Assembly: GCA_964016885.1 (NCBI GenBank)
Contig: OZ024745.1
Location: 19,716,001-19,780,000 of the forward strand
Reading direction: 5' to 3'
Length of the DNA stretch: 64,000 nt
DNA from: Eledone cirrhosa
Lineage: Eukaryota
The notes under the pieces are model-generated. The model was not told the origin of the DNA. It was given only the letters and a program-made list of their open reading frames with translations, and ran no database searches. Made by a program: the position numbers and the translations under genes. Below, one piece after another: positions 11,147-57,118 of this stretch (within the stretch, counting starts at the first letter, position 1; each line of letters starts with the position of its first letter).

Positions 11147-11210
11147 TGAACAGTGAGCTGTACTGATGAAGGGTGATACCCAGAAACATTAGTGTCTGCA
11201 GTTCTGTTCA
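11147..11210 (+). ncRNA. Type-I hammerhead ribozyme, canonical core
   Basis: ctgta-CTGATGA-a-gggt(gat)accc-a-GAAAC-attagt-GTC-tgcag; stem I extends through tgaacag/ctgttca. Confidence 0.85.
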
Positions 11211-44286: not shown

Positions 44287-44684
44287 CACGATAAATTAAT
44301 GGAGCCATAGACTCTCGTTATTCCCTGTCAATAATGTACTCAAAGGAGAAGGAATCCTGAGCTCTTTAAAATACAATATGTTGAAAAGGTAACACACTAG
44401 AGAGAGATAGTGCACCATCAATAAAACAGGGAAAAACCACCAGTGTATGGAATCTATAACCTATTAAAGGAAGGGTAGACACACGGTAATTAAAAATATA
44501 AATTAAAGTGTATATACAAACCTCTATAACTATATAACACACGCGTACAAATCCAAAGAGATCTGTTTCGCCAATAATTTGTTGACAGAAATAAATAGCC
44601 CATGGTTCATCAGCGTGTGTAAGGCTATACATTTTTCCCTGTTTTATTGATGGTGCACTATTTCTCTCTAATGTGCTACCTTTT

Positions 44685-44692
<8 letters not shown>
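44285..44692 (-). mobile_element. HHR-bearing island between (TA)n tracts with a 61-bp inverted duplication
   Basis: 44376-44436 is the reverse complement of 44632-44692 (3 mismatches). Confidence 0.7.
44539..44620 (-). ncRNA. Type-I hammerhead ribozyme
   Basis: Minus strand reads acacacg-CTGATGA-a-cca...tgg-c-GAAAC-agatct(cttt)ggattt-GTA-cgcgtgt; one stem I mismatch. Confidence 0.72.
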
Positions 44693-44720
<28 letters not shown>

Positions 44721-44725
<5 letters not shown>

Positions 44726-47700
44726 AGTATGCATGTATACGTACATACATATATGTATACAGACGTACAGTAGCATGCACATATATATATATATATATAC
44801 ATATATATATACATATGCATACAGGTACACATACATATATGCACGTATCAGTTTAGCGGCGCTAACGTCGCTTTGTTCGTTTGTAAACAAACTGAACAGC
44901 CTGAATTTATGCCATACGGTGTTAAGGCAACCACGTCACCTTTTTGTTCAACACTGACACAGGAACGATGTACTAGTTTCAAGCTTGTTAGCTATCATCA
45001 GCACCATTTACCCATCTGCCAGATAGTTGAACGTTCGAAAGTATATACTTTCCTTATGAAAATTAACGGCTGAGCAGCCTAATTTGCATATTGAGTGAGT
45101 TAAATCGGTCAGGCATACCGAAAACGATAAATTGAAACAAAATGAAAACGAAATTTCATTTCTCACTCTTAGTATGGCACTTACTTAAATGTAAGTATGC
45201 ATGTATACGTACATACATATATGTATACAGACGTACAGTAGCATGCACATATATATATATATATATACATATATATATACATATGCATACAGGTACACAT
45301 ACATATATGCACGTATCAGTTTAGCGGCGCTAACGTCGCTTTGTTCGTTTGTAAACAAACTGAACAGCCTGAATTTATGCCATACGGTGTTAAGGCAACC
45401 ACGTCACCTTTTTGTTCAACACTGACACAGGAACGATGTACTAGTTTCAAGCTTGTTAGCTATCATCAGCACCATTTACCCATCTGCCAGATAGTTGAAC
45501 GTTCGAAAGTATATACTTTCCTTATGAAAATTAACGGCTGAGCAGCCTAATTTGCATATTGAGTGAGTTAAATCGGTCAGGCATACCGAAAACGATAAAT
45601 TGAAACAAAATGAAAACGAAATTTCATTTCTCACTCTTAGTATGGCACTTACTTAAATGTAAGTATGCATGTATACGTACATACATATATGTATACAGAC
45701 GTACAGTAGCATGCACATATATATATATATATATACATATATATATACATATGCATACAGGTACACATACATATATGCACGTATCAGTTTAGCGGCGCTA
45801 ACGTCGCTTTGTTCGTTTGTAAACAAACTGAACAGCCTGAATTTATGCCATACGGTGTTAAGGCAACCACGTCACCTTTTTGTTCAACACTGACACAGGA
45901 ACGATGTACTAGTTTCAAGCTTGTTAGCTATCATCAGCACCATTTACCCATCTGCCAGATAGTTGAACGTTCGAAAGTATATACTTTCCTTATGAAAATT
46001 AACGGCTGAGCAGCCTAATTTGCATATTGAGTGAGTTAAATCGGTCAGGCATACCGAAAACGATAAATTGAAACAAAATGAAAACGAAATTTCATTTCTC
46101 ACTCTTAGTATGGCACTTACTTAAATGTAAGTATGCATGTATACGTACATACATATATGTATACAGACGTACAGTAGCATGCACATATATATATATATAT
46201 ATACATATATATATACATATGCATACAGGTACACATACATATATGCACGTATCAGTTTAGCGGCGCTAACGTCGCTTTGTTCGTTTGTAAACAAACTGAA
46301 CAGCCTGAATTTATGCCATACGGTGTTAAGGCAACCACGTCACCTTTTTGTTCAACACTGACACAGGAACGATGTACTAGTTTCAAGCTTGTTAGCTATC
46401 ATCAGCACCATTTACCCATCTGCCAGATAGTTGAACGTTCGAAAGTATATACTTTCCTTATGAAAATTAACGGCTGAGCAGCCTAATTTGCATATTGAGT
46501 GAGTTAAATCGGTCAGGCATACCGAAAACGATAAATTGAAACAAAATGAAAACGAAATTTCATTTCTCACTCTTAGTATGGCACTTACTTAAATGTAAGT
46601 ATGCATGTATACGTACATACATATATGTATACAGACGTACAGTAGCATGCACATATATATATATATATATATACATATATATATACATATGCATACAGGT
46701 ACACATACATATATGCACGTATCAGTTTAGCGGCGCTAACGTCGCTTTGTTCGTTTGTAAACAAACTGAACAGCCTGAATTTATGCCATACGGTGTTAAG
46801 GCAACCACGTCACCTTTTTGTTCAACACTGACACAGGAACGATGTACTAGTTTCAAGCTTGTTAGCTATCATCAGCACCATTTACCCATCTGCCAGATAG
46901 TTGAACGTTCGAAAGTATATACTTTCCTTATGAAAATTAACGGCTGAGCAGCCTAATTTGCATATTGAGTGAGTTAAATCGGTCAGGCATACCGAAAACG
47001 ATAAATTGAAACAAAATGAAAACGAAATTTCATTTCTCACTCTTAGTATGGCACTTACTTAAATGTAAGTATGCATGTATACGTACATACATATATGTAT
47101 ACAGACGTACAGTAGCATGCACATATATATATATATATATACATATATATATACATATGCATACAGGTACACATACATATATGCACGTATCAGTTTAGCG
47201 GCGCTAACGTCGCTTTGTTCGTTTGTAAACAAACTGAACAGCCTGAATTTATGCCATACGGTGTTAAGGCAACCACGTCACCTTTTTGTTCAACACTGAC
47301 ACAGGAACGATGTACTAGTTTCAAGCTTGTTAGCTATCATCAGCACCATTTACCCATCTGCCAGATAGTTGAACGTTCGAAAGTATATACTTTCCTTATG
47401 AAAATTAACGGCTGAGCAGCCTAATTTGCATATTGAGTGAGTTAAATCGGTCAGGCATACCGAAAACGATAAATTGAAACAAAATGAAAACGAAATTTCA
47501 TTTCTCACTCTTAGTATGGCACTTACTTAAATGTAAGTATGCATGTATACGTACATACATATATGTATACAGACGTACAGTAGCATGCACATATATATAT
47601 ATATATATACATATATATATACATATGCATACAGGTACACATACATATATGCACGTATCAGTTTAGCGGCGCTAACGTCGCTTTGTTCGTTTGTAAACAA

Positions 47701-48061
47701 ACTGAACAGCCTGAATTTATGCCATACGGTGTTAAGGCAACCACGTCACCTTTTTGTTCAACACTGACACAGGAACGATGTACTAGTTTCAAGCTTGTTA
47801 GCTATCATCAGCACCATTTACCCATCTGCCAGATAGTTGAACGTTCGAAAGTATATACTTTCCTTATGAAAATTAACGGCTGAGCAGCCTAATTTGCATA
47901 TTGAGTGAGTTAAATCGGTCAGGCATACCGAAAACGATAAATTGAAACAAAATGAAAACGAAATTTCATTTCTCACTCTTAGTATGGCACTTACTTAAAT
48001 GTAAGTATGCATGTATACGTACATACATATATGTATACAGACGTACAGTAGCATGCACATA

Positions 48062-48093
<32 letters not shown>

Positions 48094-48350
48094 CATATGC
48101 ATACAGGTACACATACATATATGCACGTATCAGTTTAGCGGCGCTAACGTCGCTTTGTTCGTTTGTAAACAAACTGAACAGCCTGAATTTATGCCATACG
48201 GTGTTAAGGCAACCACGTCACCTTTTTGTTCAACACTGACACAGGAACGATGTACTAGTTTCAAGCTTGTTAGCTATCATCAGCACCATTTACCCATCTG
48301 CCAGATAGTTGAACGTTCGAAAGTATATACTTTCCTTATGAAAATTAACG
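44721..48350 (-). mobile_element. Retrozyme-like 468-bp tandem array, left arm (HHR sense on minus)
   Basis: About 7.7 near-identical units; 43-nt HHRs start at 44965, 45433, 45901, 46369, 46839, 47307, 47775 and 48247; units differ only in (AT)n length. Confidence 0.9.
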
Positions 48351-48572
48351 TGCATATATGTATGTGTACCTGTATGCATATGTATATATATATGTATATA
48401 TATATATATATATGTGCATGCTACTGTACGTCTGTATACATATATGTATGTACGTATACATGCATACTTACATTTAAGTAAGTGCCATACTAAGAGTGAG
48501 AAATGAAATTTCGTTTTCATTTTGTTTCAATTTATCGTTTTCGGTATGCCTGACCGATTTAACTCACTCAAT

Positions 48573-48580
48573 ATGCAAAT
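48573..48580 (+). promoter_or_regulatory. Octamer motif ATGCAAAT, one per complete 468-bp unit
   Basis: Exact match about 75 nt upstream of the HHR; function untested. Confidence 0.4.
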
Positions 48581-48654
48581 TAGGCTGCTCAGCCGTTAAT
48601 TTTCATAAGGAAAGTATATACTTTCGAACGTTCAACTATCTGGCAGATGGGTAA

Positions 48655-48697
48655 ATGGTGCTGATGATAGCTAACAAGCTTGAAACTAGTACATCGT
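48655..48697 (+). ncRNA. Minimal type-I hammerhead ribozyme (representative of 16 copies)
   Basis: atggtg-CTGATGA-t-agct(aaca)agct-t-GAAAC-ta-GTA-catcgt; 6-bp stem I with 2 G-U pairs; stem III is the palindrome ACTAGT; predicted cut after 48691. Confidence 0.88.
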
Positions 48698-51600
48698 TCC
48701 TGTGTCAGTGTTGAACAAAAAGGTGACGTGGTTGCCTTAACACCGTATGGCATAAATTCAGGCTGTTCAGTTTGTTTACAAACGAACAAAGCGACGTTAG
48801 CGCCGCTAAACTGATACGTGCATATATGTATGTGTACCTGTATGCATATGTATATATATATGTATATATATATATATATATGTGCATGCTACTGTACGTC
48901 TGTATACATATATGTATGTACGTATACATGCATACTTACATTTAAGTAAGTGCCATACTAAGAGTGAGAAATGAAATTTCGTTTTCATTTTGTTTCAATT
49001 TATCGTTTTCGGTATGCCTGACCGATTTAACTCACTCAATATGCAAATTAGGCTGCTCAGCCGTTAATTTTCATAAGGAAAGTATATACTTTCGAACGTT
49101 CAACTATCTGGCAGATGGGTAAATGGTGCTGATGATAGCTAACAAGCTTGAAACTAGTACATCGTTCCTGTGTCAGTGTTGAACAAAAAGGTGACGTGGT
49201 TGCCTTAACACCGTATGGCATAAATTCAGGCTGTTCAGTTTGTTTACAAACGAACAAAGCGACGTTAGCGCCGCTAAACTGATACGTGCATATATGTATG
49301 TGTACCTGTATGCATATGTATATATATATGTATATATATATATATATATGTGCATGCTACTGTACGTCTGTATACATATATGTATGTACGTATACATGCA
49401 TACTTACATTTAAGTAAGTGCCATACTAAGAGTGAGAAATGAAATTTCGTTTTCATTTTGTTTCAATTTATCGTTTTCGGTATGCCTGACCGATTTAACT
49501 CACTCAATATGCAAATTAGGCTGCTCAGCCGTTAATTTTCATAAGGAAAGTATATACTTTCGAACGTTCAACTATCTGGCAGATGGGTAAATGGTGCTGA
49601 TGATAGCTAACAAGCTTGAAACTAGTACATCGTTCCTGTGTCAGTGTTGAACAAAAAGGTGACGTGGTTGCCTTAACACCGTATGGCATAAATTCAGGCT
49701 GTTCAGTTTGTTTACAAACGAACAAAGCGACGTTAGCGCCGCTAAACTGATACGTGCATATATGTATGTGTACCTGTATGCATATGTATATATATATGTA
49801 TATATATATATATATATGTGCATGCTACTGTACGTCTGTATACATATATGTATGTACGTATACATGCATACTTACATTTAAGTAAGTGCCATACTAAGAG
49901 TGAGAAATGAAATTTCGTTTTCATTTTGTTTCAATTTATCGTTTTCGGTATGCCTGACCGATTTAACTCACTCAATATGCAAATTAGGCTGCTCAGCCGT
50001 TAATTTTCATAAGGAAAGTATATACTTTCGAACGTTCAACTATCTGGCAGATGGGTAAATGGTGCTGATGATAGCTAACAAGCTTGAAACTAGTACATCG
50101 TTCCTGTGTCAGTGTTGAACAAAAAGGTGACGTGGTTGCCTTAACACCGTATGGCATAAATTCAGGCTGTTCAGTTTGTTTACAAACGAACAAAGCGACG
50201 TTAGCGCCGCTAAACTGATACGTGCATATATGTATGTGTACCTGTATGCATATGTATATATATATGTATATATATATATATATATGTGCATGCTACTGTA
50301 CGTCTGTATACATATATGTATGTACGTATACATGCATACTTACATTTAAGTAAGTGCCATACTAAGAGTGAGAAATGAAATTTCGTTTTCATTTTGTTTC
50401 AATTTATCGTTTTCGGTATGCCTGACCGATTTAACTCACTCAATATGCAAATTAGGCTGCTCAGCCGTTAATTTTCATAAGGAAAGTATATACTTTCGAA
50501 CGTTCAACTATCTGGCAGATGGGTAAATGGTGCTGATGATAGCTAACAAGCTTGAAACTAGTACATCGTTCCTGTGTCAGTGTTGAACAAAAAGGTGACG
50601 TGGTTGCCTTAACACCGTATGGCATAAATTCAGGCTGTTCAGTTTGTTTACAAACGAACAAAGCGACGTTAGCGCCGCTAAACTGATACGTGCATATATG
50701 TATGTGTACCTGTATGCATATGTATATATATATGTATATATATATATATATATGTGCATGCTACTGTACGTCTGTATACATATATGTATGTACGTATACA
50801 TGCATACTTACATTTAAGTAAGTGCCATACTAAGAGTGAGAAATGAAATTTCGTTTTCATTTTGTTTCAATTTATCGTTTTCGGTATGCCTGACCGATTT
50901 AACTCACTCAATATGCAAATTAGGCTGCTCAGCCGTTAATTTTCATAAGGAAAGTATATACTTTCGAACGTTCAACTATCTGGCAGATGGGTAAATGGTG
51001 CTGATGATAGCTAACAAGCTTGAAACTAGTACATCGTTCCTGTGTCAGTGTTGAACAAAAAGGTGACGTGGTTGCCTTAACACCGTATGGCATAAATTCA
51101 GGCTGTTCAGTTTGTTTACAAACGAACAAAGCGACGTTAGCGCCGCTAAACTGATACGTGCATATATGTATGTGTACCTGTATGCATATGTATATATATA
51201 TGTATATATATATATATATATGTGCATGCTACTGTACGTCTGTATACATATATGTATGTACGTATACATGCATACTTACATTTAAGTAAGTGCCATACTA
51301 AGAGTGAGAAATGAAATTTCGTTTTCATTTTGTTTCAATTTATCGTTTTCGGTATGCCTGACCGATTTAACTCACTCAATATGCAAATTAGGCTGCTCAG
51401 CCGTTAATTTTCATAAGGAAAGTATATACTTTCGAACGTTCAACTATCTGGCAGATGGGTAAATGGTGCTGATGATAGCTAACAAGCTTGAAACTAGTAC
51501 ATCGTTCCTGTGTCAGTGTTGAACAAAAAGGTGACGTGGTTGCCTTAACACCGTATGGCATAAATTCAGGCTGTTCAGTTTGTTTACAAACGAACAAAGC

Positions 51601-52297
51601 GACGTTAGCGCCGCTAAACTGATACGTGCATATATGTATGTGTACCTGTATGCATATGTATATATATATGTATATATATATATATATATGTGCATGCTAC
51701 TGTACGTCTGTATACATATATGTATGTACGTATACATGCATACTTACATTTAAGTAAGTGCCATACTAAGAGTGAGAAATGAAATTTCGTTTTCATTTTG
51801 TTTCAATTTATCGTTTTCGGTATGCCTGACCGATTTAACTCACTCAATATGCAAATTAGGCTGCTCAGCCGTTAATTTTCATAAGGAAAGTATATACTTT
51901 CGAACGTTCAACTATCTGGCAGATGGGTAAATGGTGCTGATGATAGCTAACAAGCTTGAAACTAGTACATCGTTCCTGTGTCAGTGTTGAACAAAAAGGT
52001 GACGTGGTTGCCTTAACACCGTATGGCATAAATTCAGGCTGTTCAGTTTGTTTACAAACGAACAAAGCGACGTTAGCGCCGCTAAACTGATACGTGCATA
52101 TATGTATGTGTACCTGTATGCATATGTATATATATATGTATATATATATATATATATATGTGCATGCTACTGTACGTCTGTATACATATATGTATGTACG
52201 TATACATGCATACTTACATTTAAGTAAGTGCCATACTAAGAGTGAGAAATGAAATTTCGTTTTCATTTTGTTTCAATTTATATATATATATATATAT

Positions 52298-54078
52298 ATA
52301 AAATATATAGATTTACATATACATAAACTAGACAGAGCCATAGATATATATATGTGTTTTTGGCAACCATTCACGGTGTGGCTCAATGACGAATTAATTA
52401 ATTAAATAATCAACAATCAGAGCAATATATAAGAAAGTAAGTCCATAGAATCATTTGATAAAATATATACAGTATTTCTTCTCCCAATCAGCATAATTAA
52501 CCACACAGAAAATCAATTAAACGAGGCTATAAGTTTAAAATGTACCTATGAAGAAACAATAGATAAATAAATGATACCTATTTTATCCGCGATCAACAGC
52601 CACAGAAGATTTACCCAGTATTTCTAATAGCCTGTAGAAATTGATTAGACATATAGCCAACTATACACAATTAGGTACAAAATCAGAGTTAGAAGAAAAA
52701 ATGTACATAAACATACCAAAATTGGACAAAGATTTTTCTAAATGATCCCCGCCAGAAACGAATTCAAAATGACTAAGAATTGTCACATGGCCAGTGGTCA
52801 AGTTAGAAAGCTTGTGATTGGTGCCTGACAGCGAGTAGGCTGGTTGCTAGAAAGTGCAGCCGAATACTGCCTAAATTGTTATTCAACCATACGGAAGTTT
52901 ATAAAATATATAGATTTACATATACATAAACTAGACAGAGCCATAGATATATATATGTGTTTTTGGCAACCATTCACGGTGTGGCTCAATGACGAATTAA
53001 TTAATTAAATAATCAACAATCAGAGCAATATATAAGAAAGTAAGTCCATAGAATCATTTGATAAAATATATACAGTATTTCTTCTCCCAATCAGCATAAT
53101 TAACCACACAGAAAATCAATTAAACGAGGCTATAAGTTTAAAATGTACCTATGAAGAAACAATAGATAAATAAATGATACCTATTTTATCCGCGATCAAC
53201 AGCCACAGAAGATTTACCCAGTATTTCTAATAGCCTGTAGAAATTGATTAGACATATAGCCAACTATACACAATTAGGTACAAAATCAGAGTTAGAAGAA
53301 AAAATGTACATAAACATACCAAAATTGGACAAAGATTTTTCTAAATGATCCCCGCCAGAAACGAATTCAAAATGACTAAGAATTGTCACATGGCCAGTGG
53401 TCAAGTTAGAAAGCTTGTGATTGGTGCCTGACAGCGAGTAGGCTGGTTGCTAGAAAGTGCAGCCGAATACTGCCTAAATTGTTATTCAACCATACGGAAG
53501 TTTATAAAATATATAGATTTACATATACATAAACTAGACAGAGCCATAGATATATATACATGTTTTTGGCAACCATTCACGGTGTGGCTCAATGACGAAT
53601 TAATTAATTAAATAATCAACATTCAGAGCAATATATAAGAAAGTAAGTCCATAGAATCATTTGATAAAATATATACAGTATTTCTTCTCCCAATCAGCAT
53701 AATTAACCACACAGTTATCATTATCCATGATCGGATATTTCCAAAAAGTGAATGAAACCTCATGGGGTAGAAACATAATTTTGGTATGTTTATGTACATT
53801 TTTTCTTCTAACTCTGATTTTGTACCTAATTGTGTATGGTTGGCTATATGTCTAATCAATTTCTATGGGCTATTAGAAATACTAGGTAAATCTGTGGCTG
53901 TTGATCGCAAATAAAATAGCTATCATTTATTTATCTATTGTTTCTTCATAGGTACATTTTAAACTTATAGCCTCGTTTAATTGATTTTCTGTGTAGTTAA
54001 TTATGCTGATTGGGAGAAGAAATACTGTATATATTTTATCAAATGATTCTATGGACTTACTTTCTTATATATTGCTCT
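52298..54078. repeat. 603-bp tandem repeat, about 2.35 copies, followed by an inverted copy
   Basis: Period 603 (52310, 52913, 53516) up to about 53715; 53776-54078 is the reverse complement of about 52419-52723, with about 8 substitutions and a 3-nt deletion. Confidence 0.92.
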
Positions 54079-54083
54079 ATATA

Positions 54084-55531
54084 TAGTATGACCTACAGAC
54101 CCAGATGCTTTCAGCATCTCGGCAGCTATACCCGATGGACCGGTTGCCTTCCCCATCTTCATATCTTTGATTGCCTTACTTACTACGGTGCTGCTGACTT
54201 GTACTGCTGGCCCCACTATAGGGTCTACTTGGGGTAGGGTCTCTTCTTCCCATGCATTCTCCTCATTTAGTAATCTATCATAATGGCTCTTCCATGCATC
54301 TTTCTTCTCAGCATTTGTGAGAGCAAGCTCACCTTTATCATTCCGGATACACTTCTCTCCAATGACATCACAATTCTCTCTAACATAATGCCTCGCAATC
54401 TTGAACACCTCCTGTTTCTGGTCCTCACGTTGCAAAACATGCTTGAATTTTCTATCCTCTGCTTCCCTCCTAGCTAAGTATACTTGTCGCCTAGCTTCCC
54501 TCTTGGTCTCTATGTAATGTACCCTGCTCCCTCCGTTCTTCCATTCTTTCCATGCCTGTCTCTTGGCCTTAACTGCCTCATCTACCTTATTGTTCCACCA
54601 CCAAGTCACTCTCCTCCTTCTTGTGGTCTTACTCCAGCCACAGACCTCATCCGTCACCTCTAGTAAGTTATTTTTTAGGAACTCCCAGTGCTCTTCTACA
54701 TTGAATGTATCTATCTGTTCTTCTTTACTGTCGTAGGCGTTGAGTAAAATATCTTTAAATCTGTTACTGGCTGAGGGGTCTTTCAGCTTCCAGATCTTTC
54801 TTCTCCAGGTTGGCCTCTGTTTCCAGGTTCGTCTAGTTCTGACCGTGAGGTCGCTGACAACTTAGCTATGTTGGGAGGTACATTCCTCACTAGGGTAGGC
54901 TTTTGTGTTTACGACCGTTCATCTTTCACGTCCTCTGATGAGGATAAAATCTATCTGACTAGAATGCTCCCCTGATCTATAGGTGATCAGGTGGTTGTCG
55001 GGTTTTTTGAAGTTTGTGTTACATAACGGCATGTCATTGGCATCGCAGAATTCTGGAAGTCTGAATCCTTCTTCATTTCTTGTGCCAACCCCATGGCCTT
55101 CATGGACTCTATTGTCTTTACCTACGTGTCCATTAAAATCTCCTGTGATGATTAGGAAGTCATTGTCGTTTGTTAGAGCAGCAGTGTTCATTAGGGACTC
55201 GTAAAACCTATCCCTAAGTTCGTCTGGCAACCCCGATTGGGGTGCGTAAGCTGATATTATTGTGGTAATTGTTTTATTCAGTACTAGTCTGAGTTTGATG
55301 ATTCTTGCATTTACCCTGTACACTGAGATTACTTTATCTACCCACTTGTCAGCTAGTAGTATACCTACACCACCCATCCCATCGTCATTTCCCACCCATA
55401 AAAATTTGTAGCACTGACTTTTTCCTACAAGGACTCTAGCAGACTCTCCTCTCCATCTAGTCTCTTGCACACAGCATACATCAATTTCCTTTTGCTCTAG
55501 CATTTCTACGATTTCTCCTGCTCTTCCTTTC
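54084..55531 (-). mobile_element. RTE LINE 5' half (APE and linker), inverted
   Basis: CVQETRW, SAYAPQ, GDFNGHVG, QIDFIL; ends at EMLKASGSVGHT. Confidence 0.92.
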
Positions 55532-55634
55532 ATATATACATGCACACATACATACATACATATATATATATATATAAATATATATATATTATATATACAA
55601 GCACACATACATACATACATGTATATATATATAA

Positions 55635-57118
55635 GGTGTCATACCAAAGGATTGGTGCAGTAGCATCATTGTTAACTGCTACAAAGGTAAAGGTGATGCA
55701 CCTGATAGAGGAAACTATAGAGATATAAAGCTGATGGACCAGGTCATGAAAGTAACAGAAAGAGTTATAGCACAGTTGATTAGGGACCGGGTGAAACTAG
55801 ATGAGATGCAATTTGGGTTTGTGCCAGGAAGAGGCACCTCTGATGCCCTCTTCCTTCTGAGGCAGTTACAGGAAAAGAACCTAGCTAAAAGTAAGCCACT
55901 CTACCTGGCATTTGACAGAGTTCCCCGTGCTATAATCTGGTGGGCTCTTATAAAACTAGGAGTAGATGAATGGTTTGTGAAAGCTGTACAAGCCATGTAT
56001 AGGGGAGCAGTCAGCAAAGTTAGGATTAGCAATGAGTATAGCGAGGAATTTAGCATACAGGTCGGTATCCACCAGGGCTCTGTTCTTAGCCCTCTCCTGT
56101 TCATCATAGTCCTGCAGGCAATAACGGAGGAGTTTAAGACCGGATGCCCATGGGAACTCCTGTATGCAGATGACCTCGCACTTATAGCTGAATCTGTGGT
56201 AGAACTAGAGAAGAAATTCCAAACTTGGAAGCAAGGACTAGAAAGAAAGGGTCTGAAAGTCAACCTGACAAAGACTAAGGTCGTTGTAAGTAGACGAGAA
56301 AACAGAACCCAGATCCTCTCAGGGAAATGGCCTTGCTCAGTATGTAGGAAAGGTATAGGTAGGAACTCCATTCTCTGCCCCAAATGGGTACACAAGAGAT
56401 GTAGCAGGATCTCAGGAAGCTTAACTAAGAATGTAGGCTTCACATGTAGCAGCTGTTCTGGGACAGCAAGCAGCAAACAGCCACAGGAAACAAGTACCAC
56501 CAATCTCTGGGAGGGCTCTGTAGAAACAGTAGACAGCTTCTGCTACCTAGGTGACCGAATTAGCAGCAGAGGTGGATGTTCGGAAAGTACAATAACTAGG
56601 GTAAGAACGGGATGGAAGAAGTTCAGGGAGCTACTGCCACTGCTAGCTGCAAAAGGCTTCTCCCTCAAAATGAAAGGCAGACTGTATGATGCATGTTATA
56701 CGAACAGCAATGTTACATGGTAGTGAGACCTGGGCGCTGTCAGTGGAAGAGTTGCGTAGATTAGAAAGAAACAAAGCCTGCATGCTCCGATGGATGTGTA
56801 ATAGTAATATACGCAAACGGCAAAGCATAATGAATTGAGAGAGAGAGACTGAGCATAAGATAAATCAAACACTGTGTGCAGGAGACGCGGTTGCATTGAT
56901 ATGGACATGTGATGCGTATGAAGGATGACAGCTGCATAAAAAGGTGCAGAGCACTAGAAGTCGATGGAAACCGCGGAGTGGGGAAACCCAAGACCTGGGA
57001 TGAGGTGATAAAAGCCGACCTTACCCAATTACACCTCTCAAAGGCGATGACACACGACCGTGACCTCTGGCGCCACGCAGTAATACAGAAGACCCGACCC
57101 CCCACAGGTACAAGCTGA
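55635..57118 (+). mobile_element. RTE LINE 3' half (RT and PHD-type finger), decayed
   Basis: Starts at [22 protein letters not shown]; [16 protein letters not shown]; small deletions and frameshifts. Confidence 0.92.

Follow-up and report, generated by a model that had tools for sequence, protein, structure and literature searches.

An inverted retrozyme array with a Penelope-like insertion signature in the genome of Eledone cirrhosa

Layout of the array

The window analysed here is a stretch of 64,000 nt from Eledone cirrhosa (GCA_964016885.1, contig OZ024745.1, positions 19,716,001 to 19,780,000 of the forward strand). A tandem repeat with a period of 468 nt spans 44721-52281 of the window (~7.5 kb) in 16 near-identical copies; its GC content is 0.34-0.36 (<50%), and its orientation switches strand at 48348-48350. 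With unit positions counted from the predicted hammerhead cut, the array and its borders consist of the following features:

44689..44720, no strand: (AT)n tract on the left target side
44721..48350, minus strand: left arm of 3,630 nt with 7.8 units and 8 hammerheads; its inner end lies at unit position 371 and the outer (3') one at 250 (site A)
48129..48347, minus strand: unmirrored spacer of 219 nt, the inner end of the left arm
48246..48290, minus strand: predicted type I hammerhead motif inside the spacer
48348..48350, no strand: ACG overlap common to both arms (junction microhomology)
48348..52281, plus strand: right arm of 3,934 nt with 8.4 units and 8 hammerheads; its inner end lies at unit position 125 and the outer (3') one at 312 (site B)
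48654..48698, plus strand: first right-arm type I hammerhead; its predicted cut follows 48691, and the rare T (unit position 433) is at 48656
48692..49159, plus strand: one 468-nt cleavage-to-cleavage monomer (predicted circle), with an AT-rich hairpin zone at unit positions 127-240
52220..52281, plus strand: 62-nt "tail" that separates site A from site B and occurs at the right outer end alone
52282..52300, no strand: (AT)n tract on the right target side

A sequence-only reading had described a strand flip in mid-array that forms a ~7-kb palindrome joined at a 3-nt ACG, with arms of ~3.4 kb around a 219-nt spacer holding one hammerhead, and this description is borne out. The arms 44721-48128 and 48348-51749 mirror each other with 99.8% identity over 3,408 nt, the 219-nt spacer between them contains a single hammerhead (48283, minus strand), and the left arm follows the unit through 48350 while the right arm follows it from 48348, which gives the overlap of 3 nt. 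Because ~7% of random joins of the 468-nt unit reach an overlap of at least 3 nt, the ACG on its own is weak evidence. The periodicity of the array also allows a second mirror register, with arms of 3,632 nt. The right arm outruns the mirrored part by 532 nt, the flanks of the array are not mirrored, and the (AT)n length variants, found on the left in zones 5 and 8 and on the right in the outermost zone, lack mirror placement, as had been stated. Twelve of the 14 full cleavage-to-cleavage monomers are identical, and the other 2 deviate solely in the AT zone.

At the outer ends, ..cttacAT on the left (250) and ..aatTTAT on the right (312), both arms run into (AT)n via AT, in agreement with the sequence-only reading. 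Its further remark that the ends stop at "different phases" is right in that they differ, but the phases are not arbitrary: they correspond to two fixed, family-wide start sites 62 nt apart. Both ends lie inside (AT)n, which would mask a target-site duplication. Read-through transcription of the array would be predicted to yield dsRNA of about 3.4 kb. Extrusion of a cruciform is unlikely with a spacer of 219 nt, and hairpins may form in single-stranded DNA.

The repeat unit

A motif and helix scan finds 16 hammerhead motifs in the array, 8 per arm, with their sense strands all pointing away from the junction, as had been proposed. The motif comprises helix I, a CTGATGA core, a 4-bp helix II, GAAA, a palindromic CTAG helix III/loop and a predicted cut GTA^CATC. 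An Rfam scan of the array returned no match at the gathering score, so that the hammerhead call depends on the motif and helix scan. Among 368 fetched copies, the core bases show 98-100% conservation, with little covariation, and a short palindromic helix III like that of the 468-nt unit has been described for metazoan hammerheads (PMC4209133). Folded as a circle, the monomer 48692-49159 has a predicted free energy of -153 kcal/mol, as compared to -106 kcal/mol for shuffled sequences (z -7.5); the extra predicted stability comes largely from a long hairpin in the AT zone, which terminates immediately ahead of site A.

Just three stop-to-stop frames of 135-158 aa overlie the array, each across an AT zone, and its ORF listing contains no reading frame with reverse transcriptase (RT) and GIY-YIG domains; the 468-nt unit is non-coding, as judged from these frames. 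By its tandem units, the predicted type I hammerhead in each unit and the lack of a coding ORF, the array is classified as a non-LTR retrozyme, very probably inserted in the manner of a Penelope-like element (PLE).

Neighbouring elements

The array sits in a pile of similar elements, and two other two-armed families flank it directly. On its right, at 52297-54078, lies a two-armed non-coding element with 2.35 copies of a 603-nt unit and an inverted arm; copies 1 and 2 are identical, copy 3 differs at 3 of 212 positions, and the unit is without the about 90 nt that hold the family's hammerhead-like motif (recognized by eye in L175). This family numbers about 5,000 candidates, whose ends recur at query positions 1 and 129. 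On the left, at 44290-44688, a small two-armed element lies between (AT)n tracts; its family comprises about 3,400 candidates, in which the ends lie repeatedly at query positions 1 and about 78-87, and no hammerhead was found in the element.

Further along, 54078-57100 is an RTE-type LINE with an inverted 5' part, the two pieces of which are ~39 nt apart in the intact copy L164, as in twin priming. That the cluster split one RTE LINE with a ~180-nt deletion was considered and rejected: the flanking RTE pieces belong to different subfamilies. A hammerhead of a different family lies at window position 11163 on the plus strand and is present also in L118 and L140.

Paired ends across the family

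The hammerhead core has 10,412 exact matches in assembly G000 (3.0 Gb); the first 100 of them, all on contig C1, and the 51 stretches around them constitute the family sample. A survey of other arrays of the unit for central inversions had been suggested, and inversions turned out to be common in this sample: all 16 opposite-strand hammerhead pairs at most 1.5 kb apart among the first 100 matches are divergent, and 34 of the 55 insertions scored by hand in the 51 stretches are two-armed, alongside 3 with a second arm from another family and 18 with one arm. Nine two-armed loci with one unscorable end were left out of the end pairing. In the scorable two-armed loci, one end near 250 (A) is combined with another near 312 (B) in 25 of 25 cases, with neither an A+A nor a B+B pair (binomial p 3e-8 against 0.5). 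In a separately picked set of 20 loci, chosen by similarity, A+B dominates as well, and one complex locus, L038, is B+B. The strand flip is the normal form of this retrozyme family and not an accident.

Because the insertion L032 interrupts an (AT)n that stays whole in the paralogues L135 and L139, the microsatellite is shown, on the level of paralogous sequences, to be a pre-existing target. The opposite view, that the insertion created the (AT)n, was not supported, as L032, the sole clean case among 35 loci tested for an empty site, already has the (AT)n there. Twelve clean young junctions chosen by eye overlap by at least 1 nt in 11 cases (46% by chance) and by at least 2 nt in 8 (18% by chance); an automated scoring of microhomology succeeded on 28 of 39 junctions and cannot be relied upon where copies have diverged.

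The cut site is crossed by 20 of 23 A arms and by 20 of 23 B arms, in a sample that demanded one intact hammerhead per locus and is thus biased toward crossing in one arm only, and of 72 inner ends a single one falls at most 10 nt from the cut site, with 3.8 expected. Since the arms usually pass through the cut site, a linear monomer copied once cannot have been the template. Inner ends are enriched at positions 285-325 (14 versus 7.3 expected, p 0.013), a post hoc result from one of 8 windows in a sampling-biased set. Two of 36 B arms comprise nothing but the tail (60-61 nt) and break off at site A (p 0.04), as if both primers had sat on one RNA.

Arm lengths in one locus are uncorrelated (rho 0.06, n = 23), with medians of 447 and 567 nt in the family sample. 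The shorter arm of the locus studied here measures 3,630 nt and the next longest shorter arm in the sample 1,860 nt (L101, 8.8 kb in total); the locus is the upper tail of a common process. The same two-armed junction occurs in L160 (contig C258) and L161 (C758), 96% alike over 3 kb, which may be alleles or a duplication.

Penelope-like signature

PLE insertions are known to carry an inverted 5'-truncated copy and to target (TA)n (PMC8557442; PMC3846280), and often have a tail of 30-40 bp at one end only (PMC8557442). In vitro, both strands of AT-rich DNA are cut and extended by purified PLE protein, which initiates at two internal positions next to each other, one on either side of the tail, and a dimer has been predicted; hammerhead cleavage is dispensable in this system, and unprocessed RNA is the main substrate (PMC11167929). 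The array fits this signature in its head-to-head arms, one-sided tail and (AT)n target. The parallel drawn by the sequence-only reading to PLE insertions and to LINE twin priming stands for the former but not for the latter: after 8 turns, the outer end of the inverted arm is at 250 and the inner end of the other arm at 125, without the abutment that classical LINE twin priming would leave.

Assembly G000 contains 10,597 candidates with RT and GIY-YIG domains, of which 150 were scored. Three of them, L139, L140 and L141, are autonomous RT + GIY-YIG elements with an inverted arm in (AT)n, one end being short and the other longer by about 40-64 nt. A helper carrying the unit sequence outside AT-rich DNA was not found among 37 PLE loci from the 10,597 candidates, which represent several PLE families. 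A likeness of the B end of the unit to the ends of the L128 family was set aside, as these are T-rich and too low in complexity to be of use. At the 3' ends of L128, L139, L140 and L141, an apparent hammerhead can be recognized by eye, with TTGAAAA replacing CTGANGA (a U3-A8 pair) and a CCGG palindrome.

Several loci combine the retrozyme with other elements. In L035 (5662) and L064 (2976), retrozyme arms are fused in the same sense into a GIY-YIG-like coding region of two different PLE-like families; these fusions could stem from template switch or deletion and are possible leads to a helper. In L058 (3858-3907), L080 (3021-3095) and L059 (~2060-2189), a second arm from a different family, in L059 an L128-type PLE end, is fused to the retrozyme arm, by either the use of two different RNAs at one break or a deletion between stacked elements.

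The template

A rare variant, T at unit position 433, is present on all 16 hammerheads of the array. Genome-wide there are 53 T433 copies, 16 of them the array's own, versus 8,300 copies with C433, and no other locus in the assembly has at least 3 consecutive T433 units; the change C433T is a recurrent CpG change. Because the rare T433 occurs on all 16 units, copying of both arms from the same template is supported at the level of sequence variants. Other young loci (L033, L055, L096, L150) likewise have a private haplotype on all units and both arms. In a nearest-neighbour test of left against right arms, the partner arm was unsurpassed in 16 of 24 loci; in the remaining 8, an arm from elsewhere was closer. 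In run X1, a single 486-nt contig is identical over 48130-48350 and hence carries T433; contigs from X2 show C there.

The exact cleavage-to-cleavage monomer was found once elsewhere among the fetched loci, in L031 on contig C1741, flanked by C433 upstream and by G77 and G163 downstream. Two hammerhead cuts in the L031 array would release exactly this monomer, which is modest evidence because any start in a 112-nt window (24% of phases) fits. In L031 and L101, mixed units recur in the same order near both outer ends, and therefore multimer templates do occur. The sequence-only reading had proposed about 8 rolls round the same template: the same template is upheld by T433 on the 16 units, and rolling ~8 times round a circle would be the best reading for this array, but L031 and L101 need a multimer.

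L101 and L144 together (G000, contig C1, 69.578-69.587 Mb) form a longer two-armed locus of 1.9 + 6.9 kb with mixed units, in which a run of a 448T unit, 466 and 458 lies near both outer ends; a trimer circle was entertained there and dropped, the period-3 pattern being imperfect. The same family also forms arrays in one direction, all on contig C4: >60 units at 305.62-305.66 Mb (L104-L107), at least 17 at 212.95 Mb (L103) and 28 at 291.57 Mb (L102). Shared variants in L102 and in the 305.6-Mb array suggest satellite-like, later growth at the DNA level.

A model of insertion and its alternatives

The array could have arisen in the following manner: A tandem parent is transcribed and two hammerheads would free the 468-nt monomer, which would then circularize, as retrozyme biology suggests. 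The enzyme, probably paired, would nick both strands of the (AT)n, in line with the published in vitro work. One end may then prime at A (250) and the other at B (312), the positions at which the arms are seen to end, each by a 2-nt AT match. Both cDNAs would run round the template past the hammerhead site. Finally, their 3' ends would be joined by microhomology of 1-3 nt, here at ACG, to give the head-to-head arms apparent in the sequence. We assign a probability of roughly 0.56 to double priming on one circular monomer RNA, copied ~8 times on each side by the RT/endonuclease of a PLE. Its parts differ in strength: two-sided nicking of (AT)n, priming at A and B, and microhomology joining are very probable, and a circular template appears reasonably probable. 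The proposal that two separately primed cDNAs were anchored in (TA)n and joined at a short microhomology had been made from the sequence of the locus, and the family-wide A+B ends and junction overlaps argue for it.

Several findings speak against the circle. Hammerhead cleavage is not needed by the PLE in vitro (PMC11167929), and the neighbouring 603-nt repeat has two identical units without its family's hammerhead segment, so that identical tandem units can arise without a ribozyme circle. The same two-primer Penelope-type insertion may instead have used a long linear transcript that was left uncut and came from a homogeneous parent array, with neither circle nor rolling. L031 and L101 require multimer templates, unprocessed RNA is the main in vitro substrate (PMC11167929), and cleavage outside dimers is predicted to be weak for so short a palindromic helix III (PMC4209133), all of which favour such a template; the parent, however, would need at least 9 consecutive T433 units, of which the assembly has none beyond this locus, and the long arrays examined (L101, L102 and the C4 array at 305.6 Mb) are mixed and not clonal. 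A linear template is a rather unlikely alternative. Less probable still is a small two-armed insertion whose arms later grew by tandem duplication at the DNA level, arm-to-arm gene conversion keeping them alike. The ~0.5-kb arms of most family insertions, the block and higher-order patterns in L102, L148 and the C4 array, and the seemingly recent duplication of the adjacent 603-nt unit are consistent with growth of this kind, but eightfold growth would have to be squeezed into almost no time, as the 14 full monomers on the two arms are without a point difference, and the AT-run variants are not mirrored.

The haplotype common to both arms would also result if a single cDNA folded back and primed itself, the second arm being a copy of the first (a scheme related to the model in PMC3846280), and two junctions (L057, L077) do lie on palindromes. 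If a B-primed arm were copied by fold-back, the copy would have to fall short of it by 62 nt or more, and the A arm exceeds that limit in 11 of 23 loci, while an A-primed arm cannot supply the tail; at 44721-52281 itself the A arm is the shorter one and compatible with fold-back, which nevertheless remains very improbable. An assembly or read fold-back artefact is, by a little, the least probable explanation. The junction is not bridged by an independent read or contig (the contigs are short, from samples not known to be this individual, and weigh on neither side), and identical units may be miscounted; against an artefact, the flanks are unmirrored, the ends fall on the A and B sites of the family, hundreds of similar junctions are implied, one of them (L160/L161) on two contigs, and the locus-wide rare variant speaks against collapse of other copies. 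With high confidence, the array at 44721-52281 is a real, young retrozyme insertion bearing a Penelope scar, and multi-kilobase palindromes in such genomes are often genuine insertions rather than assembly errors.

In its most specific form, the preferred model of double priming on a circular monomer has a pair of PLE enzymes acting on one ribozyme-made circle at sites 62 nt apart, with both cDNAs rolling many times, a version that is tentative and falls short of an even chance. If it holds, the locus would document double rolling-circle reverse transcription directly in the genome, the rule of one short and one tailed end would be a general explanation of inverted Penelope insertions, and the scar would prove that PLEs mobilise retrozymes.

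Comparison with known systems

LINE-1 twin priming is the classical route to a 5' inversion: two target ends prime two cDNAs on one RNA, which are joined by microhomology. In contrast, the array has fixed start sites that are internal, lacks a poly(A), and has arms that overlap in the template many times; only the tail-only B arms (2 of 36) resemble the classical LINE-1 case.

With metazoan non-LTR retrozymes, the array has in common the tandem non-coding units with one type I hammerhead each, the low GC content, the thousands of copies and the co-occurrence with PLEs (PMC7229834; PMC7761336; bioRxiv 10.64898/2026.07.22.740005). The unit of 468 nt is slightly above the range of 150-450 in PMC7229834 and within that of 51-972 in the preprint (bioRxiv 10.64898/2026.07.22.740005). 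CircRNA templates, multimeric cDNA by rolling-circle reverse transcription and help from PLEs have already been proposed for these elements (PMC7229834; PMC7761336; bioRxiv 10.64898/2026.07.22.740005), and PLE rolling-circle copying of retrozyme circles has so far been a model. Whereas the arrays in these papers are head-to-tail, the arms here are inverted; the word "inverted" has no occurrence in PMC7229834, and the main text of the preprint does not treat inverted arrays or fixed ends. Likewise, the link to PLEs in the retrozyme papers is co-occurrence and pLTR similarity, while for this array the scar of the insertion provides it. For Schistosoma, hammerheads close together on opposite strands have been mentioned (PMC4209133).

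The inverted 5'-truncated arm, the tail at one end, the (TA)n targets and the two internal start sites are shared with head-to-head insertions of PLEs (PMC8557442, PMC3846280, PMC11167929). The array differs from them in having no ORF, in a tail of 62 nt as opposed to the usual 30-40, and in that each arm consists of ~8 identical turns of one monomer; in its family, the pairing of one short and one tailed end could be counted, at 25 of 25. Retrozyme junctions are mostly microhomologies of 1-3 nt, while palindromes are the counterpart in the PLE descriptions. The origin of tandem and inverted PLE structures is an open problem according to PMC8557442. Insertions of the retrozyme family number in the thousands, with fixed ends, a strict A+B pairing and haplotypes specific to each locus, and they provide a genome-scale route to separate circular from linear templates; if the proposed mechanism is true, the locus would be rare genomic evidence on how PLEs insert. 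No description of inverted retrozyme arrays with fixed paired ends was found in the openly accessible literature that was searched. The individual parts, i.e. retrozymes, inverted arms and tails, have been described before; the strict pairing of ends on retrozyme arrays and a clonal palindrome of 16 units seem to lack an earlier description.
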